From an uncultured Acidobacteriota bacterium (GTDB taxonomy: Bacteria; Acidobacteriota; Vicinamibacteria; Vicinamibacterales; Fen-181): DNA of 64,000 nt. Position numbers and translations under genes: made by a program. The stretch covers positions 167,854 to 231,853 of the forward strand of contig CAVUJA010000003.1 in NCBI GenBank assembly GCA_963741715.1. The letters are read 5' to 3'. The notes beneath the pieces are model-generated. The model ran no database searches and was not told the DNA's origin. It saw only the letters and a list, made by a program, of their open reading frames with translations. Position 1 is the stretch's first letter. The number at the start of each line of letters is the position of its first letter. Positions 7,483-61,974 of this stretch are shown piece after piece.

Positions 7483-7514
7483 GCGGCAGGCAGCAGACTG
7501 GCTGCCTGCTGTCG

Positions 7515-7563
7515 CTTGCGGCCTGCGGGCTGCGACTTGCGGCTCGCGACTTGCGGCTCGCGG
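7515..7563. repeat. Heptamer tandem array (CTTGCGG family, 7 units)
   Basis: cttgcgg cctgcgg gctgcga cttgcgg ctcgcga cttgcgg ctcgcgg, preceded by a GC hairpin (about 7483-7513) just after the stop codon. Confidence 0.85.
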
Positions 7564-7728
7564 CCGCGTCGCGTTCGTCGGCTGCGGCTCGGGCCTTCGG
7601 CCGGCTCGACATCGCGCGCAGGCAGATCATCACTCGCGGCCAGCTGACGGCTGACTGCTTTCCGGCGGACCCCGGCCCGCGCTGCAGAATCGTCCGCGGG
7701 CCATGCCGCCCGCTCGAAGGAATCTTCC

Positions 7729-8901
7729 ATGGACCACAAGTACGTCGTTCTCGGTGCCGGGCGCCAGGGTGTGGCGGCGGCCTACGATCTCGCGGTGTTC
7801 GGACGCGCGGAGAGCCTGGTCCTGCTCGATATCGACCCTGCCCTGGCGCAGGCTGGCGCGGCCAGGCTGAACGGGCTTCTCGGGAAGAAGGTCGCCTGCG
7901 GCTACCGGGTGGACGCTGCCGACGTGGCGGCGGTCGCTCCCCACCTGGACGGCGCAACCGGCCTCATCAGCTCGGTGCACTACACCTTCAACCTCGAAAT
8001 GACGAGGCTCGCCATCGCGAAGAAGGTCCATATGACCGACTTCGGCGGCAACACCGGCGTCGTCCGCCAGCAGTTGGCGCTCGACGCGGAGGCGGCCGCG
8101 GCGGGCGTGACGATCGTCCCTGATTGCGGCATGGGCCCCGGCCTGAACATCTCGCTCGGCACCTACGTGATGGAACTCGTGGAGGTGCCGGAGGAAGTGT
8201 TGATCTGGGACGGCGGCCTGCCGCAGGACCCCCAGGCGCCCTGGAACTACGTCAGCACGTTCAACCTCGGCGGCCTGACCAACGAGTACGACGGCGACGC
8301 GTTCTTCCTGCGCGACGGCACGGTGACACCGGTGCCGTGCTTCTCGGGCTACGAGGTGCTGGAGTTCCCCGAGCCGCTCGGCAAGCTCGAAGCCTTCGTC
8401 ACGTCGGGGGGCCTGTCGACTTCGCCGTGGACGTTCGAGGGCAAGCTGAAGCGGCTCGAGAACAAGACGCTTCGCTACCCGGGCCACGTGGCGCAGTTCA
8501 AGGCGTTTTCGGACCTCGGGCTGCTCGGCCTCGACGCGATTGCGGTCGGCAATCAACGGGTGGTGCCTCGCGATGTCTTCCACGCGCTGCTCGCGCCGCA
8601 GATCTGCAGAAGCGAGGTGAAGGACGTCTGCGTGATGCGCGTAAAGGGCGTTGGGACCACGAAAGGCAGGAAGGCCGAAGCCGTGGTGGAACTCGTCGAT
8701 CGCTACGACGAGAGGACCGGGTTCACCGCCATGCAGCGCCTCACCGGCTGGCACGGCTCGATCGTGCTGATTGCCGCGGTGAACGGCATGGTGCGCCGCG
8801 GGGCGGTGCCGGTGGAACTCGCGGTGCCTGGGAAGACGGTCGTGGACCAGTGCAAGCGTCGCGGGTTCGCGATCGCGGAACGGGTGACGGTGGGTCTGTA
8901 G
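7729..8901 (+). CDS. Saccharopine dehydrogenase / lysine 6-dehydrogenase family oxidoreductase
   Basis: VLGAGRQG Rossmann motif, PDCGMGPG, GGLPQDP, FVTSGGLST, KTLRYPGH. Confidence 0.85.
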   Translation: MDHKYVVLGAGRQGVAAAYDLAVFGRAESLVLLDIDPALAQAGAARLNGLLGKKVACGYRVDAADVAAVAPHLDGATGLISSVHYTFNLEMTRLAIAKKVHMTDFGGNTGVVRQQLALDAEAAAAGVTIVPDCGMGPGLNISLGTYVMELVEVPEEVLIWDGGLPQDPQAPWNYVSTFNLGGLTNEYDGDAFFLRDGTVTPVPCFSGYEVLEFPEPLGKLEAFVTSGGLSTSPWTFEGKLKRLENKTLRYPGHVAQFKAFSDLGLLGLDAIAVGNQRVVPRDVFHALLAPQICRSEVKDVCVMRVKGVGTTKGRKAEAVVELVDRYDERTGFTAMQRLTGWHGSIVLIAAVNGMVRRGAVPVELAVPGKTVVDQCKRRGFAIAERVTVGL

Positions 8902-8907
8902 AGGGGG

Positions 8908-9001
8908 GCTGGCGGCCGACGACTTGCGGCTGGCGGCCGATCGCACGCGTGACACGCGTAACGCGGCCGCAGGCCAAAAGCCGCAGGTCGCAGGCCGGAC
9001 G
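8908..9001. repeat. Inverted pair of heptamer arrays around central palindrome CACGCGTG
   Basis: gctggcg gccgacg acttgcg gctggcg ... cacgcgtg (8944-8951) ... ccgcagg ccaaaag ccgcagg tcgcagg. Confidence 0.75.
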
Positions 9002-10629: not shown

Positions 10630-11059
10630 ATGGCCAACGAGCAGCTCGCGGCGTTCATCGATCGCCACACAATCGCATGGAACCAGCATGACGCCGCGGC
10701 GCTCTGCGATCACCATGCCGAGCACGGGGTGGTCTACAGCCCGATGTTCGCGCGCATCGAGGGGCGGTCGCAGAATCTGCGGGAGCTATTCGGCGCTCTT
10801 CGTAGTGTTCCCGGACTGGCGCCTCGACTTCGGCCCTCCCATCATCGACGGCAATCGCATCGCCTTGCCGTTCTCCGTCACCGCCACCCACAAGGGAGAC
10901 TTCATGGGATTGCCGGGCACCGGCAGGCGGTGCGAGTTCGAAGGCGTCTCGCTCATCGAGCTGGACGATGACCTGCTGATCCGTGAGGAGCGGCGGGTGT
11001 ACGACTTCACGGGTCTCCTGACGAGACTGGGCGTCCTGAAGGTCAAGCCCGGCGTCTGA
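10630..11059 (+). CDS. SnoaL-like/ester cyclase NTF2-fold protein (apparent +1 frameshift at about 10774)
   Basis: GGAG+ATG 10630 (AWNQHDAAAL) continues in the next frame as FPDW...THKGDFMGLPGTGR...YDFTGLL. Deleting one A in CAGAATC joins them. Confidence 0.8.
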
Positions 11060-11166
11060 CGCGCCCCACTCCATCCCCTCGATGTCGCCGAGGTCCGTCG
11101 CCCGTCCGGTGGCCCGTCACCCTGGGACGTCCGTGGAGGGACGTCATGGGCGACGAACGCTCGCAC

Positions 11167-11364
11167 CTATCCGCCGGAGATCATGTGGATGACCTGCACG
11201 TCCGCGCCGTCGGGCACGACCGCCTTGTCGTACGTCCCCCGCTTGACGAGCTCGCCGTTCACCTGCACGGCAATCATGCGGAAGATGTAGTTGCGGATCT
11301 TCAGGATGTCCGCGATGGTCATCCCTTCGCGCCACGGCATGGGTTCGGTGTTGACGGTGATCAT
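11167..11364 (-). CDS. thiS: ThiS/MoaD-family sulfur carrier protein
   Basis: 65 aa, IAVQVNGELV, C-terminal ISGG. Could be the AOR-associated MoaD-like paralog rather than thiamine ThiS. Confidence 0.8.
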   Translation of the reverse strand: MITVNTEPMPWREGMTIADILKIRNYIFRMIAVQVNGELVKRGTYDKAVVPDGADVQVIHMISGG

Positions 11365-11367
11365 GGG

Positions 11368-11884
11368 AGGAGTCGGGAGTCGGGAGTCAGGATTCAGTTC
11401 GCCCTCAGCGCCTCGGCTTCGTAACCGTCTGGGCCTCGGCCAGTTCTTTCAATCGACGAATCAGGCCGTGGAGCATCCGACCGCATTCGGCGGCGGCGGC
11501 GAGCACCTCTTCCGCTGCAGGCGTCTCCGCAAACCCGAGTCGGACGGCCAGTTCGACCTGCGTCTCGAGCTCCATGAGAGATCCGTGAGCAATTGCGAGG
11601 TGGTGCAGGTACTCGCGCGTGATGGAACGGCCGTGCCCTTCGGCCACATTCGATGGAACAGACACGGCGGACCGATGAATCTGGGCGCGTAACCCGAACT
11701 GTTCATGCGCCGGAAACGGCTCGGTGAGCCGATAGGCGGCCACGGCGAGGTCCATTGCCTTCTGCCACACCTCGAGATCGCGATAGCTCTCGACCTTCCC
11801 TGGCATTGCGAGAACCTCGTCGTGACTGGCCTGAATCCAGTATCCCGAATCCACCTGAATCCTGAATCCCGACTCCCGAATCCT
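11368..11884. mobile_element. Putative cassette: four-helix-bundle gene bounded by 30-bp heptameric terminal inverted repeats
   Basis: Left 11368-11397 aggagtcgggagtcgggagtcaggattcag; right 11855-11884 ctgaatcctgaatcccgactcccgaatcct; 28/30 complementary. Mobility is inferred only. Confidence 0.55.
11405..11806 (-). CDS. Four helix bundle protein (23S rRNA IVS protein / Avd-like family)
   Basis: SYRDLEVWQKAMDL, FPAHEQFGLRAQIHRSAVSVPSNVAEG, IAHGSLMELETQ; GAGG RBS before ATG 11806. Confidence 0.92.
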   Translation of the reverse strand: MPGKVESYRDLEVWQKAMDLAVAAYRLTEPFPAHEQFGLRAQIHRSAVSVPSNVAEGHGRSITREYLHHLAIAHGSLMELETQVELAVRLGFAETPAAEEVLAAAAECGRMLHGLIRRLKELAEAQTVTKPRR

Positions 11885-11894
11885 GTCAGTGGTC

Positions 11895-14093
11895 TCAGAG
11901 ATGCGGCGTCACCACCGCGACCACGTCGGGAAAATCGATCTTGAACTTCTTCAGCGTCTCGAGCGTCGGGATGGCGTTGTTCGTCCAGCCGCGGCGGGCG
12001 TAGACCGCGTCGCACAGCTTGTTGTAGCGGTCTTCACGCCACTTGCGGTGCAGCGCAATCTTCTCGTCGGTCGACTTGCCCTCCGGATCGATGCCGATCA
12101 GGTCCGCGAGCTGCTTGTCGTAGCGCTCGGCGCGCGACTCGTACTCTTCCCTGGTCAGCGGGCCCATCGAGCGGTAGGGCGGCCAGTCGCTCTTGCGCCC
12201 GCCCATGCCCATGCGCAGGTTGAACACGCGCTGGAAGTTGTAGACGCCTTCCGACATCCGGATGAAATCGTCGATCGTCGCTTCCTGCCCGGTGATGCCG
12301 GCGTAGAGCTCCTGGTAGTTGTGGACGTGCTCGGGCACCTTCGCCGCGTTCTTCCCGTGCTTCGCGTTGTCCTCGGGCTCGATGTCGTTCCACGGCAGCT
12401 TGCAGAGGCCCATCAGGCCGAACCAGGTGCGGAACAGCGGGAAGTAGTGCAGCGCCTCCGCCTTGTCCTCGAAGGTCGGGATCTGGTTGTTGACCATGTC
12501 CATGAAGATCAGCCAGGCCTCGTCGTGCTGGGGCCCCTTGTTGGTCAACGCGTAGCCGCCCTGCTGCGCCAGCGACTCCTTCGACTGGTACTGCGAGTAC
12601 TCGAGCCCTTTCACCTGCATGCCGAAATCGCGCATGAACTGCAGGTCGCCCCAGCCCCGCTCGGCGAAGTGCTCCTGCATGTCCTTCACGCCCTGGCCGA
12701 CGACCAGGCCGAAGCCCTCCCCGCGCGCCATCTGGTGCAGCAGCTCGACGTGCGACTCGCCGTTGCCCCAGCTGAGGTCGAGGCCGCCGGTCCGCTCCGC
12801 GTTCAGGATGCCGCGCTGCCAGCACTCCATCGCGAACGCGCAGCAGGTGCCGAACGAGATGGTGTCGATGCCGTAGGTGTCGCAGTAGAAGTTCGATTCG
12901 AGGATCCAGTCGGGTTCGAAGATGCCGCAATTCGACCCGAGGCCGGCGCACGTCTCGTACTCCGGGCCGTCCACCGTGACGATGTGGCCCTTGTAGGGGC
13001 CGGTCATCACCTTGTGGCAGTCGGCGCCCTTCGCGCACGCCATGTGGCAGCCGTACCAGCAGCCGTCGAAGATCCCCTGCGTGAACCGCTTCTCCCACAC
13101 GGTCGACTGGATCTTGTCGATGTCCGGGTGGCTGCCGTACTGGAAGTTGTGCACCGGCAGGAGGTCGTAGGCGTCCATCACTTCGACCAGGTGCGCCGTG
13201 CCGATCTTTCGCATCTTGCACTGCTGGTCGTCGAAGTCGTGGATCTCCTTCGCCAGCACCCGGCCGACCTTCGTGGTGCGCGCGACATCGGCCGCGCGGT
13301 TGTGGTCGCCCTTCATCTTCGGCCCGTGCACCACCAGCGCCTTGATCTTCTTGTCGCGGAACACCAGGCCGATGCCGCCGCGCCCCGCCTGCTTCAAGCG
13401 GGCGGCGCCGCGCCTGGGGTCGAACCACGAGAAGTTCAGGCAGCCGATCCGGCTGTGCTCGGCCCCCTTGCCCGCCGACACCACCGACACGTTCACGAAG
13501 TCCTTCTCGTCGTCCGCGTACTGGTGCATGAACACTTCGGACGCGACGTGGCTGTCGGGGTTCTCCTCGGGCGCCTCCTCGATGGTGATCGTCTTCTTCG
13601 GGCCGTCGATCACGACGATGACGTCGCGCGCGGCCTTCCCCTGGATCTCCAGCGCGTCGTAGCCGCAGAACTTGAGGAGCGGGCCGAAGTAGCCGCCGAC
13701 GTTGCTGTCGATCGGAATGCTGGTGAGCGGCGACAACGTGACGACGAGCGACTTGCCCGAACCGGCGTACGCGGTGTTCCCGGCGAGCGGCCCGGGGCTG
13801 ATGATGATGTCGTTCTCCGGGTCGTTCCACTTCGTCGTCGGGGTGATCGCGTGCCAGAGGTACCAGAGGCCGAAGCCGCGCCCGCCGATGAAGATGTCCT
13901 TCATCTGCTGGGTCACCGCCTTCTCGCTCACGGTCAGGGTGGAGAGGTTGATGTGCAGCGTACGATTCGTGTAGCCGCGCTCCGGCAGGCTCGGTTCGAA
14001 GCGGTGCTGCAGCAGGACCTTGTGCGCCGCTTTCTGCGCGGCCGCGTCCTCGGTGTACGAGGTGCGGGTCTTGTAGTCGTACCCGACTGACAT
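11895..14093 (-). CDS. aor: Aldehyde:ferredoxin oxidoreductase (W/Mo-pterin AOR family)
   Basis: AAGGAG+ATG 14093. FIGGRGFG, DSNVGGYFG, QAGRGGIG, CWYGCHMAC, GPEYET, YGIDTIS. The ORF-track extension to 15563 is spurious. Confidence 0.9.
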   Translation of the reverse strand: MSVGYDYKTRTSYTEDAAAQKAAHKVLLQHRFEPSLPERGYTNRTLHINLSTLTVSEKAVTQQMKDIFIGGRGFGLWYLWHAITPTTKWNDPENDIIISPGPLAGNTAYAGSGKSLVVTLSPLTSIPIDSNVGGYFGPLLKFCGYDALEIQGKAARDVIVVIDGPKKTITIEEAPEENPDSHVASEVFMHQYADDEKDFVNVSVVSAGKGAEHSRIGCLNFSWFDPRRGAARLKQAGRGGIGLVFRDKKIKALVVHGPKMKGDHNRAADVARTTKVGRVLAKEIHDFDDQQCKMRKIGTAHLVEVMDAYDLLPVHNFQYGSHPDIDKIQSTVWEKRFTQGIFDGCWYGCHMACAKGADCHKVMTGPYKGHIVTVDGPEYETCAGLGSNCGIFEPDWILESNFYCDTYGIDTISFGTCCAFAMECWQRGILNAERTGGLDLSWGNGESHVELLHQMARGEGFGLVVGQGVKDMQEHFAERGWGDLQFMRDFGMQVKGLEYSQYQSKESLAQQGGYALTNKGPQHDEAWLIFMDMVNNQIPTFEDKAEALHYFPLFRTWFGLMGLCKLPWNDIEPEDNAKHGKNAAKVPEHVHNYQELYAGITGQEATIDDFIRMSEGVYNFQRVFNLRMGMGGRKSDWPPYRSMGPLTREEYESRAERYDKQLADLIGIDPEGKSTDEKIALHRKWREDRYNKLCDAVYARRGWTNNAIPTLETLKKFKIDFPDVVAVVTPHL

Positions 14094-44510: not shown

Positions 44511-44543
44511 GGCGGGGTCCTCTGGGCTGGGCCCGTGTCAACG

Positions 44544-44708
44544 CAGAATGAAGAATGCAGAATGCAGAACTCTTCGTCATGCGAGCCCGTCGCGGCGCAC
44601 GCGTGCTGGCGTTCTTCATTCGTCATTCTTCATGCTCCATTGACGGCGAACGCAGAGGACCGTCGCGCTCCTGTCTGCCATCCTGTGTCTTCTGCCTTCT
44701 GCCTTGCC
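44544..44708. repeat. Inverted pair of CAGAATG/CATTCTT arrays around GCACGCGTGC, plus a TTCTGCC array
   Basis: cagaatg aagaatg cagaatg cagaact ... gcacgcgtgc (44597-44606) ... cgttctt cattcgt cattctt catgctc; then ttctgcc ttctgcc next to the dsrC stop. Confidence 0.85.
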
Positions 44709-45347: not shown

Positions 45348-45427
45348 CCGGCGGCCTGCAACGGGCGGCCTCGTCACGCGTGACGCCGGCCAGGCCGCAA
45401 GCCGCAAGTCGGCAGCCGCAAGCCGTC
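45348..45427. repeat. Inverted pair of CTTGCGG-family arrays around the 14-bp palindrome CGTCACGCGTGACG
   Basis: ccggcgg cctgcaa cgggcgg ... cgtcacgcgtgacg (45372-45385) ... ccgcaag ccgcaag tcggcag ccgcaag. Confidence 0.75.
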
Positions 45428-46516: not shown

Positions 46517-46572
46517 CTCTCGGCGTGCGGCCTGCGGCTTGCGGCTCGACTCTCGACTGTCGACTCCCGACG
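46517..46572. repeat. Heptamer array switching family mid-array, between dsrA and dsrB
   Basis: ctctcgg cgtgcgg cctgcgg cttgcgg ctcgact ctcgact gtcgact cccgacg, in unbroken 7-nt phase. Confidence 0.85.
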
Positions 46573-46579
46573 CGGGCCG

Positions 46580-47764
46580 CTATCCCTTGGGCTCTTCCTC
46601 GTAGTACTCCTCGTAGAAGACGTACGGGTTCTCGCGTGGATGCTTCACCATCTCGGGCTTCGGGTCGAGGCCGATCGCCTCGAGGAAGTTCCCCAGGCCG
46701 ACGCGCTGGATGAACTCGCCGACCCGCTCGCGGTTCTTGCCCTCGTCCGCCCACAGCTCGAGGATCTTCGCGACGAGCTCCTTCAGCTCGGCGTAGGGCG
46801 GCTCCATCTTCATGAAAGGCACGAGCACCGCCGACAGCATCGCGCCCGACACGATGGGCGCCTTGCCGCCGATCAGGATGCAGGCGCCCCGCTCCCTGCC
46901 GGGCCGGAGCGCCTTGGGCATCACGTTGATGCAGTGCATGCACTTCGCGCAGGCGCCGCTGTCGACGGCCAGCGTCCTCCCGTCCCAGTCCATGCACTTC
47001 GACGGGCACCGCTCGCAGACGGCGGCCTGCACGTCCAGGCCGCCGGCCGCGTACTCGGCCACCGCCGCCTGGTCCACCTGGATCGCATCGCGCCAGATGC
47101 CGATCACGCTCAGGTCGGCGCGCGCAATGGACGCGACGCAGTCGTTCGGGCAGCCCGACGCCTTGATCTTGAACTTGTACGGAAGCGACGGCCGGTGGAT
47201 CTCGTCCTGGTAGTGCTGCGTCACGTCGTAGGTGAAGTCGAGCGTGTCGAAGCACGCCCACTCGCAGCGGGCCGGCCCGACGCAGCAGCTCGGCGTGCGC
47301 ACGACGGATCCCGACCCGCCGAGGTCGAAGCCGTTCTCGGTCAGCTCGGCGAACGCCGGCTCCAGTGACTCGGTCTTCGTCCCGAGCAGGATGATGTCGC
47401 CCGTCGCGCCGTGCAGGTTCGTCAGCCCCGACCCGTGCTTCTCCCACAGGTCGCAGATCTTGCGCAGCGCGTCGGTCGTGTAGAACCACCCGGCCGGGTG
47501 ATTCACGCGCATCGTGTGGAACTGCGCGATCTCCGGGAACTGCTCGGGCACGTCCGAGTAGCGGCCGATGACGCCGGCGCCGTAGCCGCGAACGCCGACC
47601 ACGCCGCCGTGCTTCCAATGACCGACGCGGTCTTCGTACGAGAGTTCGAGGACGCCGAGCAGTTGGCCCGCCATGGCATTCCCCTCGGCGGCCCGCTTCA
47701 TCTCGCGCACGAAGCTCGGCCACGGCCCCTGTTCGAGATCGTCCAGCTTGGGTGTTGGCTTCAT
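46580..47764 (-). CDS. dsrA: Dissimilatory sulfite reductase alpha subunit
   Basis: [41 protein letters not shown], siroheme motif CVGPARC...GCPNDC, CMHCIN.MPKAL, HPRENPY. Confidence 0.97.
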
Positions 47765-47840
47765 CCCTGATCCCCGATTCCCGATCCCTGATCCCTGATC
47801 GATCCCCAACTGAATCCCGAATCCTGAATCCCGAATCCTG
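47763..47840. repeat. Heptamer arrays (ATCCCTG and AATCCCG/AATCCTG) filling the dsrL-dsrA spacer
   Basis: atccctg atccccg attcccg atccctg atccctg ... aatcccg aatcctg aatcccg aatcctg. Same family as the arms of the 11368-11884 cassette; abuts the dsrA ATG. Confidence 0.88.

Positions 47841-61025: not shown

Positions 61026-61974
<949 letters not shown>

Follow-up and report, generated by a model that had tools for sequence, protein, structure and literature searches.

PF05635 is a large protein family of unknown function, known mainly from the intervening sequences of ribosomal RNA (rRNA) genes and from its relative Avd, a protein of diversity-generating retroelements (DGRs). Tandem heptamer repeats, over-represented in bacteria and noted for decades, have to our knowledge no known origin, partner or function. 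A union of gene and dispersed repeat is familiar from the repetitive extragenic palindromic (REP) sequences and their REP-associated tyrosine transposases (RAYTs): in these modules, also called REPtrons, a short repeat stands in inverted orientation on either side of one gene and recurs in hundreds of further intergenic copies, often as inverted doublets, and the type of repeat varies with the gene paralogue. Here we describe a PF05635 gene, encoding a four-helix-bundle (4HB) protein, that lies between two complementary arrays of tandem heptamers in the gap between aor and thiS of an uncultured Acidobacteriota bacterium (assembly GCA_963741715.1, labelled G000 below). Gene and arrays together are called the cassette. 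The stretch analysed, referred to as the window, comprises 64,000 nt (contig CAVUJA010000003.1, 167,854–231,853), and coordinates given without a contig are window positions.

According to the part of its description available to us (PMC4990558), the intervening sequence of Coxiella 23S rRNA forms a 28-bp stem that RNase III cuts mid-stem, with the 5′ cut at the first heptamer, and tandem GACAGAT heptamers stand upstream of its S23p open reading frame (ORF). Heptamer repeats have been described, in the accessible portions of the sources, from Xanthomonas (GGGAATC) and Nostoc (PMC4692102), from Beggiatoaceae (TAACTGA; PMC4679880) and from recF/recO of Nostoc (preprint 10.1101/2022.06.06.494920). 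The terms ‘helix bundle’, ‘S23’ and ‘intervening’ are absent from the main texts of PMC4692102 and PMC4679880, whose supplementary gene lists, possibly naming PF05635 neighbours, lay outside the search, and ‘helix bundle’ is absent from the available part of the preprint. A literature search that left subscription papers (the original Leptospira papers and those on the short tandemly repeated repetitive (STRR) sequences) and supplements outside its scope found PF05635 linked to dispersed heptamers only in a remark on Coxiella (PMC4990558); because of that scope, the link is not claimable as unpublished.

Results

A 4HB gene between complementary heptamer arrays

Read on the minus strand, aor is followed by a heptamer array, a 133-aa ORF, the complementary heptamer array and thiS (Table 1). 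The two arms are 30 nt each, 93% (28/30) complementary and 457 nt apart, and both have a period of 7 when analysed with TRF (4.3 copies in the 3′ arm; 6.9 copies with 72% matches at 11833–11883 for the 5′ arm). The arms are unequal, ~54 versus ~30 nt, because the 5′ arm extends inward in degenerate heptamers to ~11830. Their pairing is beyond chance: the stem at the locus scores 25, compared with 11.5 for the highest-scoring of 30 downstream-flank shuffles, and under the same scoring only 3/1500 random 400-nt pseudo-cassettes from G000 reached 18 or more. When the 554-nt minus-strand RNA was folded, the arms formed the closing stem in both the minimum free energy (MFE) and the centroid structure (z = −3.24, equalled by 0/100 shuffles), and the thiS AUG was paired within the base of the predicted stem.

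The 5′ arm begins 10 nt past the aor stop codon and the thiS ATG (11364–11362) stands 3 nt beyond the 3′ arm, preceded by C/T-rich sequence in which inspection found no Shine-Dalgarno-like purine run; the 4HB gene itself has a GAGG-type ribosome-binding motif ahead of it. Promoter-like and terminator-like sites were looked for in the aor–thiS interval, and none was seen. An earlier, sequence-only reading of this DNA had described 28/30 complementary heptamer arms around the gene, the same distances to the aor stop and the thiS start and the want of a Shine-Dalgarno sequence, and on each of these points, as in naming the three genes, it is borne out.

The 4HB protein is the sole coding content of the cassette. 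It matches PF05635 over profile positions 1–106 of 106 (E = 4.6e-35; 120.5 bits, cut-off 33.8) and TIGR02436 of NCBIfam (119.1 bits, cut-off 24), and the nearest solved structure by sequence similarity is PDB 2gsc (Xcc0516, E = 7.5e-25), with 2rld also matched (E = 3.7e-4); each of the two entries contains 5 chains. The invariant polar residues Q, S, N, E, S and E are conspicuous in the alignment of 4HB proteins. PADLOC returned no match, and Rfam none within 10900–12300 at E up to 1.

Table 1. Features of the aor–thiS interval (window positions).
Feature	Position	Strand	Evidence
aor, aldehyde:ferredoxin oxidoreductase, 732 aa, upstream gene of the operon	11895–14093	−	AFOR_N E = 1.2e-28, AFOR_C E = 4.4e-99 (Pfam); stop TGA 11897–11895
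5′ arm on the transcript, four tandem heptamers of RGGAKTC type, G/purine-rich	11855–11884	−	Inverted repeat, period-7 array, fold
Inner degenerate extension of the 5′ heptamer array, without partner in the 3′ arm	11830–11854	−	TRF; weaker inverted pairs
4HB gene, 133 aa from ATG, PF05635/TIGR02436	11405–11806	−	Profile matches
3′ arm, four tandem heptamers of GAMTCCY type, C/pyrimidine-rich, complement of the 5′ arm	11368–11397	−	Inverted repeat, period-7 array, fold
thiS/moaD-like sulfur-carrier gene, 65 aa	11167–11364	−	PF02597 E = 2.9e-8

The same anatomy at other PF05635 genes

G000 (5.67 Mb in 3 contigs, 69% G+C) contains six PF05635 matches, and all six genes are bracketed by a tandem array upstream and its complement downstream, with stem scores of 17.5, 20, 25, 30, 32 and 36.5. 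The repeat unit is a heptamer in five of these cassettes and an octamer in one, and no two cassettes share a unit. PF05635 is also present in 25/31 related genomes. A tblastn search with the window's 4HB protein gave a match in 28 of the 30 loci returned, whose flanks were examined, and a plasmid tblastn gave 32 records, mostly cyanobacterial, 13 of which were taken for flank analysis; the resulting set of 46 loci consists of these 41, the four other G000 genes and one further aor–thiS locus (L046). A locus was counted as positive if its flank-to-flank stem scored at least 13 and above all 30 shuffles. By this measure 39/46 loci were positive, including 11/13 from plasmids. Positives came from Anabaena, Nostoc, Calothrix, Geminocystis, Pseudanabaena, Picosynechococcus, Gemmatirosa and Riemerella, adding Cyanobacteriota, Gemmatimonadota and Bacteroidota to the relatives, and also from Azospirillum, in which a heptamer-armed cassette lies within the large-subunit (LSU) rRNA gene. 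Flanks of this kind at other family members had been set beforehand as a test of the sequence-only reading, and the outcome favours it. The units vary between loci, and it is clear that the architecture of a gene between complementary arrays is that of every PF05635 gene in G000 and of most such genes examined in four phyla.

Arms and neighbours showed a polarity. On the sense strand the upstream arm had more G than C in 32/39 cassettes and was purine-rich in 31/39, and the upstream gene was co-oriented with the cassette in 20/26 callable loci and in most of the annotated plasmid loci. Many cassettes elsewhere precede a convergent gene or sit antisense to their neighbours.

Some cassettes of cyanobacterial plasmids (L050, L058, L060 and L051) are placed within operons, among them CRISPR-cas operons. 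The cas6|cas4 gap holds a heptamer-armed 4HB cassette in plasmids of Anabaena sp. 90 and Pseudanabaena galeata, another such cassette lies between cas10 and cmr3 on a Picosynechococcus plasmid, and a Nostoc edaphicum plasmid has an antisense 4HB cassette between two ribonucleotide reductase subunit genes.

Dispersed arrays and their co-occurrence with PF05635

Arrays of 3.5 or more copies with a TRF score of 40 or more were strongly concentrated at one period in G000 (354 arrays of period 7, compared with 18, 70 and 33 for periods 6, 8 and 9, respectively), and strict, non-redundant 7/8-mer arrays numbered 412 in 5.67 Mb. Ranked by size, the top six array families correspond to the units of the six cassettes, AATGCAN, TAGTGGC, AGTCGAG, GGATTC/GGAGTC, GCCGCAR and AACTGGGN; the unit family of the aor–thiS cassette is dispersed over ~45 other sites, and most dispersed heptamer arrays in G000 share unit families with its six cassettes.

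Strict arrays were also counted in 15 genomes, sampled at up to 200 kb each on grids fixed in advance. Among the PF05635-negative genomes, G004, G027, G021, G029 and G023 had 0 period-7 arrays per 100 kb and G020 had 1.0; G015, with one weak PF05635 remnant, had 1.5. Genomes with at least three PF05635 matches had 1.4 (G026), 3.5 (G000), 4.0 (G028), 8.5 (G009), 9.5 (G014), 14.1 (G024), 15.5 (G012) and 16.5 (G016), and no PF05635-negative genome lay above any of these (the genome-wide density of G000, 7- and 8-mers together, is 7.3). Counts for periods 6 and 9 were 0–5 in all sampled genomes. PF05635 copy number and array density were correlated across the 15 genomes with a Spearman rho of 0.92, a figure that overstates independence because the genomes compared are kin. 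The cleanest comparison is made within one genus: G004, which belongs to the same genus as G000 and is assembled as a single 7.04-Mb contig, is array-free. In G012 and G016, the units next to the genome's own 4HB genes account for most of the array families sampled. Among the genomes sampled, such arrays are almost confined to those that carry PF05635.

Arrays in G000 also tend to pair with one another. Neighbouring arrays were in inverted complement (score ≥14) in 76/606 pairs, compared with 21/600 random pairs, and the inverted pairs fell into two gap classes, <100 nt (54 pairs) and 300–600 nt (9 pairs, 5 of them 4HB cassettes, from a total of 49 neighbour pairs at that gap). At a looser threshold there were ~70 hairpin-only elements, composed of the same unit families. 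Placement relative to flanking genes was inferred from the phase of G+C at third codon positions (GC3). Hairpin-only elements stood between co-directional genes in 47 cases (G-arm first in 18, C-arm first in 29), convergent genes in 13 and divergent genes in 3, with 7 unassigned; for 287 solo arrays the figures were 145 co-directional (G on the sense strand in 91, C in 54), 50 convergent, 18 divergent and 74 unassigned.

The loops of hairpin-only elements share a palindromic motif irrespective of heptamer family (for example C1:2675552–2675628, C2:133512–133680 and C2:250247–250325). CGCGTGA occurred in 11/70 hairpin loops where 0.65 were expected (no more than 3 in any of 200 controls); for GTGAC the figures were 23/70 observed and 4.8 expected. 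A GTCACG-like word follows the 5′ arm of the aor–thiS cassette.

Further arrays are scattered through the window. GCCGCAR-type arrays at 7514–7564 and 8965–8997 stand one on each side of an ORF at 7729–8901, an AATGCAG-type hairpin lies at 44543–44641, and another heptamer array with a cassette-family unit lies at 45394–45425. A composite array of GCCGCAR and AGTCGAG units is found at 46521–46571, ATCCCTG and GAATCCC arrays at 47763–47840, and six TAGTGGC units at 61864–61919.

Four non-4HB genes (rpsJ and ybaB-like, purE-like and TPM-like ORFs, named by eye) are enclosed by inverted arrays of one family. As other cargo of the element they were rejected: their number is about that expected by chance, and two of them have a complete hairpin on each side, not a split one. 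At L063 (C2:45070–45702) a 147-aa TPM-domain-like ORF, so named by eye, is tightly enclosed by AATGCAC-type arms in the style of a 4HB gene; it may be a chance arrangement or a cassette with other cargo.

Two enzymatic origins of the arrays were considered and rejected. Against an origin by reverse transcriptase, in the manner of telomerase, RVT_1 was not found in the array-rich genomes G012, G009 and G014 and is present in array-free G004; the eight RVT_1 matches of G000, none of which is on the window's contig (C3), had no consistent arrays nearby. These matches lie at seven places on C1 and one or two on C2, and seven cover the full profile with near-identical scores, which suggests a multi-copy retroelement such as a group II intron, unrelated to the arrays. 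As for an origin driven by a RAYT, G000 has a single Y1_Tnp match, with no arrays nearby.

History of the aor–thiS site

The C-terminal 200 residues of AOR located 19 places in 17/31 genomes, with thiS in the fetched stretch at 17 of them. An intact cassette is found between the two genes in G000, G003, G008, G001, G017, G012 and G018. G009 has an intact cassette too, separated from aor by an unrelated ORF; in this region (C3 ~173–175 kb; L007/L043) the intervening frame is open for 456 aa and looks transposase- or integrase-like by eye, and the 5′ arm is removed. The ORF is decayed and the arms are kept in G013 (214 nt between genes), G016 (218 nt) and G014 (405 nt), as recognised by eye; G015 (187 nt) retains only the 3′ arm and a C-terminal remnant (tblastn E = 2.9e-8), G011 (124 nt) has a bare hairpin, and G004 (59-nt spacer) and G020 (202 nt) have no arrays. 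Every stage of cassette decay, plus an empty allele, therefore occurs at aor–thiS among relatives, where the sequence-only reading had proposed a comparison for empty sites; this test too comes out in its favour. In G006 (L033), G002 (L036) and a second G011 locus (L048), the 5′ array is followed by a different, shared insert; this insert is conserved over ~150 nt or more and has a G/T-rich run just ahead of the thiS ATG.

By eye, thiS has no Shine-Dalgarno motif wherever an arm abuts the gene in relatives, and a purine-rich motif precedes its ATG in the empty G004 spacer and in G017. A contig from a public RNA run (X1) joins thiS (11340) to aor (11902) by 66 other letters, a low-likeness metagenome joint that fits a cassette-less relative.

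Cassettes at this one site differ in type. With GGATTC-type arms, the 4HB proteins are 81% (G000 and G012), 75% (G000 and G008) and 77% (G008 and G012) identical; with ACGAGGG-type arms, 76% (G003 and G009); and with the related AGGCGGAK types, 67% (G001 and G017). Across heptamer types at the site identity falls to 50–63%, despite 94% identity of the AOR C-terminus (G008 and G009; G012 and G009). A site between histidine-kinase and response-regulator genes (neighbours named by eye) gives a similar picture: G000 has a TAGTGGC cassette, and G003, G002 and G011 have AGCTGG-type cassettes whose 4HB proteins are 70–89% identical to one another and 53–56% identical to that of G000. The 4HB type tracks heptamer type, not host kinship, and the cassette therefore behaves as a replaceable module; protein and arms are inherited and replaced jointly at aor–thiS, and in some relatives the cassette has decayed or been lost. 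Intact 4HB copies compared with their orthologues gave dN/dS of 0.08–0.12 with dS near saturation; the protein is under purifying selection.

The ACGAGGG unit, which flanks the aor–thiS cassettes of G003 and G009, is an orphan in G000. There, ACGAGGG/AAGAGGG arrays (C1, C2) are solo, with the CCCTCGT strand almost always on the plus strand.

Discussion

A proposed resident copy of a modular element

The sequence-only reading took the feature for an inserted cassette, and it is supported in part. The discrete unit of intervening-sequence type, a PF05635 ORF in a ~30-bp stem, stands; a recent or isolated insertion it is not, being one member of a genome-wide, cross-phylum system of matched arrays, and the finding is more general than that reading supposed. 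We regard the feature, on balance and with moderate confidence, as a resident copy of a modular element of intervening-sequence type, consisting of a PF05635 4HB gene within inverted tandem-heptamer arrays and situated in a protein-coding operon.

For the local mechanism, read-through transcription followed by cleavage of the stem is the best-supported account, and one that we lean towards with similar restraint. The cassette would have no promoter of its own and would be transcribed by read-through from aor; the G-rich 5′ arm would pair with the C-rich 3′ arm in the RNA to give a ~30-bp duplex open to RNase III, an enzyme whose gene G000 encodes. Such a cut would allow the insert to be tolerated within the transcript and would release the 4HB mRNA, and the 4HB protein might then act on heptamer arrays of its own type. 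Hints of a role in RNA come from the fold, the polarity of the arms, the co-orientation of upstream genes, the interval free of promoter-like or terminator-like sites, the RNase III gene and the precedent of Coxiella.

Several observations weigh against this account or parts of it. On the sense strand, stem mismatches comprised 56 G-U and 51 A-C; G-U is thus not enriched, and the arms look complementary through their derivation at the DNA level rather than through selection on the RNA. The ~70 hairpin-only elements occur in either orientation relative to co-directional genes (18 versus 29). Public RNA runs (6 matched, at ≤0.10 of sampled words, of which four were compared at 85% likeness) covered aor and thiS with contigs from relatives alone, which are uninformative on expression, transcript ends or processing. 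In the part of PMC4990558 available to us, the authors doubt that the Coxiella S23p protein is made at all. Seven of the 46 loci had no stem (L004, L007, L001, L019, L021, L056 and L061): L004 fails because a contig end leaves just 56 nt downstream, the upstream arm of L007 is displaced by another ORF, L056 has an array on the downstream side only, and L061 has arrays on both sides in the same strand. The match of protein to unit is also imperfect. There are orphan families with no cognate 4HB gene in G000, namely ACTGCCT (18 arrays) and ACGAGGG/AAGAGGG (20 arrays), beside AAGAATG (7 arrays, mixing with AATGCAG), and a tblastn search for 4HB remnants belonging to orphan families, made with 28 proteins, returned only four known genes and one false match (radC-like, by eye). 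The mapping of units to cassettes is only partial in G009 and G014, G026 has three PF05635 matches yet few arrays, and the kinship of the sampled genomes has been mentioned above. Finally, across differing sites protein identity only weakly predicts arm similarity (rho 0.14, reached by 61/2000 permutations).

The simplest source of the complementarity lies in the DNA, if both arms belong to one palindromic array, homogenised or recently derived. The RNA duplex that results would be what makes the insert tolerable inside transcripts.

Other explanations

A DNA origin could be the whole of the matter. Palindromic heptamer hairpins, each a G-rich array joined through a short loop to a C-rich one, might gain or lose the 4HB cassette when its arms engage in homologous recombination or gene conversion, with complementarity as a by-product and the RNA stem without a selected role. 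Landing sites of this kind are at hand in the hairpin-only elements, which belong to the cassette unit families and stand in both orientations; the restriction of inverted pairs to two gap classes, the near-equality of G-U and A-C mismatches and the occupation of the same site by different cassette types in close relatives all fit, as does the bare hairpin of G011, whose loop resembles the end of a 4HB gene by eye, and no transposase need be invoked. However, neither the spread of hairpins to new sites nor the missing arrays of PF05635-negative genomes is explained in this way, and the same is true of the G-rich arm lying upstream of the ORF and of the co-oriented upstream gene. Moreover, some copies of the element reside in rRNA, a setting whose function requires an RNase III stem. 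We consider this explanation unlikely.

The cassette appearance could alternatively be secondary to regulation. The 4HB protein would then bind tandem heptamers sequence-specifically, in either RNA or DNA; the dispersed arrays would be the targets through which it regulates, and those around its own gene a means of autoregulation. In G000 each 4HB paralogue has a unit family of its own, PF05635 genes and arrays tend to be found in the same genomes, the protein is under purifying selection and its invariant polar residues would suit such a role; solo arrays are depleted between divergent genes (18/287) and biased to G on the sense strand, and the available part of the Nostoc preprint (10.1101/2022.06.06.494920) describes heptamer repeats with regulatory effects and a partner ‘yet to be identified’. 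Selection alone is nevertheless unlikely to have produced dozens of independent origins of one heptamer array. The orphan families and the weak protein–unit coupling across sites also count against regulation as the explanation, and PADLOC and Rfam lent it no match. We judge it improbable, more so than recombination through the arms.

Much the same low probability attaches to translational coupling, raised by the sequence-only reading, in which the stem would loop out the ORF and ribosomes ending at the aor stop would cross the stem base, a gap of ~13 nt, and start again on the thiS ATG. This would account for the short distances from stop and start to the stem and for the thiS AUG being paired in the stem base; it would also suit the distribution of ribosome-binding motifs among relatives, with none where an arm abuts thiS and a purine-rich motif in the empty G004 spacer and in G017. 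The idea is purely geometric, however. Elsewhere the majority of cassettes do not separate coupled genes, many being antisense or placed before a convergent gene, and cleavage of the stem by RNase III would separate the two cistrons.

Chance, or generic slippage in a genome where heptamer microsatellites are common enough (412 strict arrays) for two to flank a gene, is scarcely credible. Inverted arrays of one family do enclose four small genes of ordinary kind, about as many as expected. The explanation is refuted by the enclosure of 6/6 PF05635 genes compared with 3/1500 random sites, by the recurrence of the pattern in four phyla and by the six PF05635-negative relatives, similar in G+C, in five of which no arrays were found.

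A possible partner for heptamer repeats

Returning to the modular element, its anatomical rule in four phyla and its co-occurrence with arrays at the level of genomes tie the puzzle of PF05635 to that of heptamer repeats, and both become open to ordinary experiments. We tentatively propose, as a possibility short of a probable one, that PF05635 4HB proteins are the missing partner of tandem heptamer repeats, including the cyanobacterial STRR-type, the Xanthomonas GGGAATC and the G000 arrays; each cassette type might specify, bind, maintain or spread arrays of its own unit, much as in REP/RAYT systems, though by means of a helical bundle that does not look enzymatic. If this is true, the intervening sequences of 23S rRNA are the rRNA-resident special case of the element. 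The results themselves recast rRNA intervening sequences as one setting of a broader cassette that occurs within operons too, as at aor|thiS, cas6|cas4, cas10|cmr3 and between genes for ribonucleotide reductase subunits. A widespread gene-plus-repeat module of this kind may explain the abundance of tandem heptamer repeats in many bacteria.

Comparison with known systems

With DGR Avd the cassette shares a homologous fold family (PF22296, bAvd-like, E = 4.4e-5; NF033474, E = 3.6e-8), but the 4HB protein falls below both curated cut-offs (24.4 versus 40 bits and 33.7 versus 80 bits, respectively), and there is no reverse transcriptase near the cassette, all 8 RVT_1 matches being on other contigs. 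The likeness to REP/RAYT is one of organisation, a gene flanked by inverted copies of a genome-dispersed repeat family with six units corresponding to the six largest families. The components differ: the 4HB protein is a small helical bundle without the HUH/Y1 motif, and the repeats of the cassette are tandem heptamers, whereas REPs are single imperfect palindromes.

The intervening sequences of 23S rRNA in Leptospira and Coxiella burnetii come closer, having a PF05635 (‘S23p’) ORF in a ~430–450-nt insert with inverted repeats of ~28–30 bp that form a stem and, in Coxiella, tandem heptamers upstream of the ORF. The aor–thiS copy has the long-stem inverted repeats of this class and not its location in the 23S rRNA gene, lying between protein-coding genes rather than in rRNA helix 45 or helix 9. 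It differs further in that both of its arms are explicit tandem-heptamer arrays of a unit family dispersed elsewhere in the genome, and in that RNase III processing, known for Coxiella, is here a proposal.

The dispersed arrays of G000, in which tandem 7-nt units exceed other periods, conform to the STRR type. In the parts of PMC4692102 and PMC4679880 available to us, the STRR-type, Xanthomonas and Beggiatoaceae repeats are likewise intergenic tandem 7-mers, often in convergent inverted pairs and under-represented between divergent genes, of unknown function and partner. The Xanthomonas unit, GGGAATC, is nearly identical to that of the aor–thiS cassette, and X. campestris encodes a PF05635 protein, Xcc0516, the very protein whose structure (PDB 2gsc) is nearest to the 4HB protein described here.

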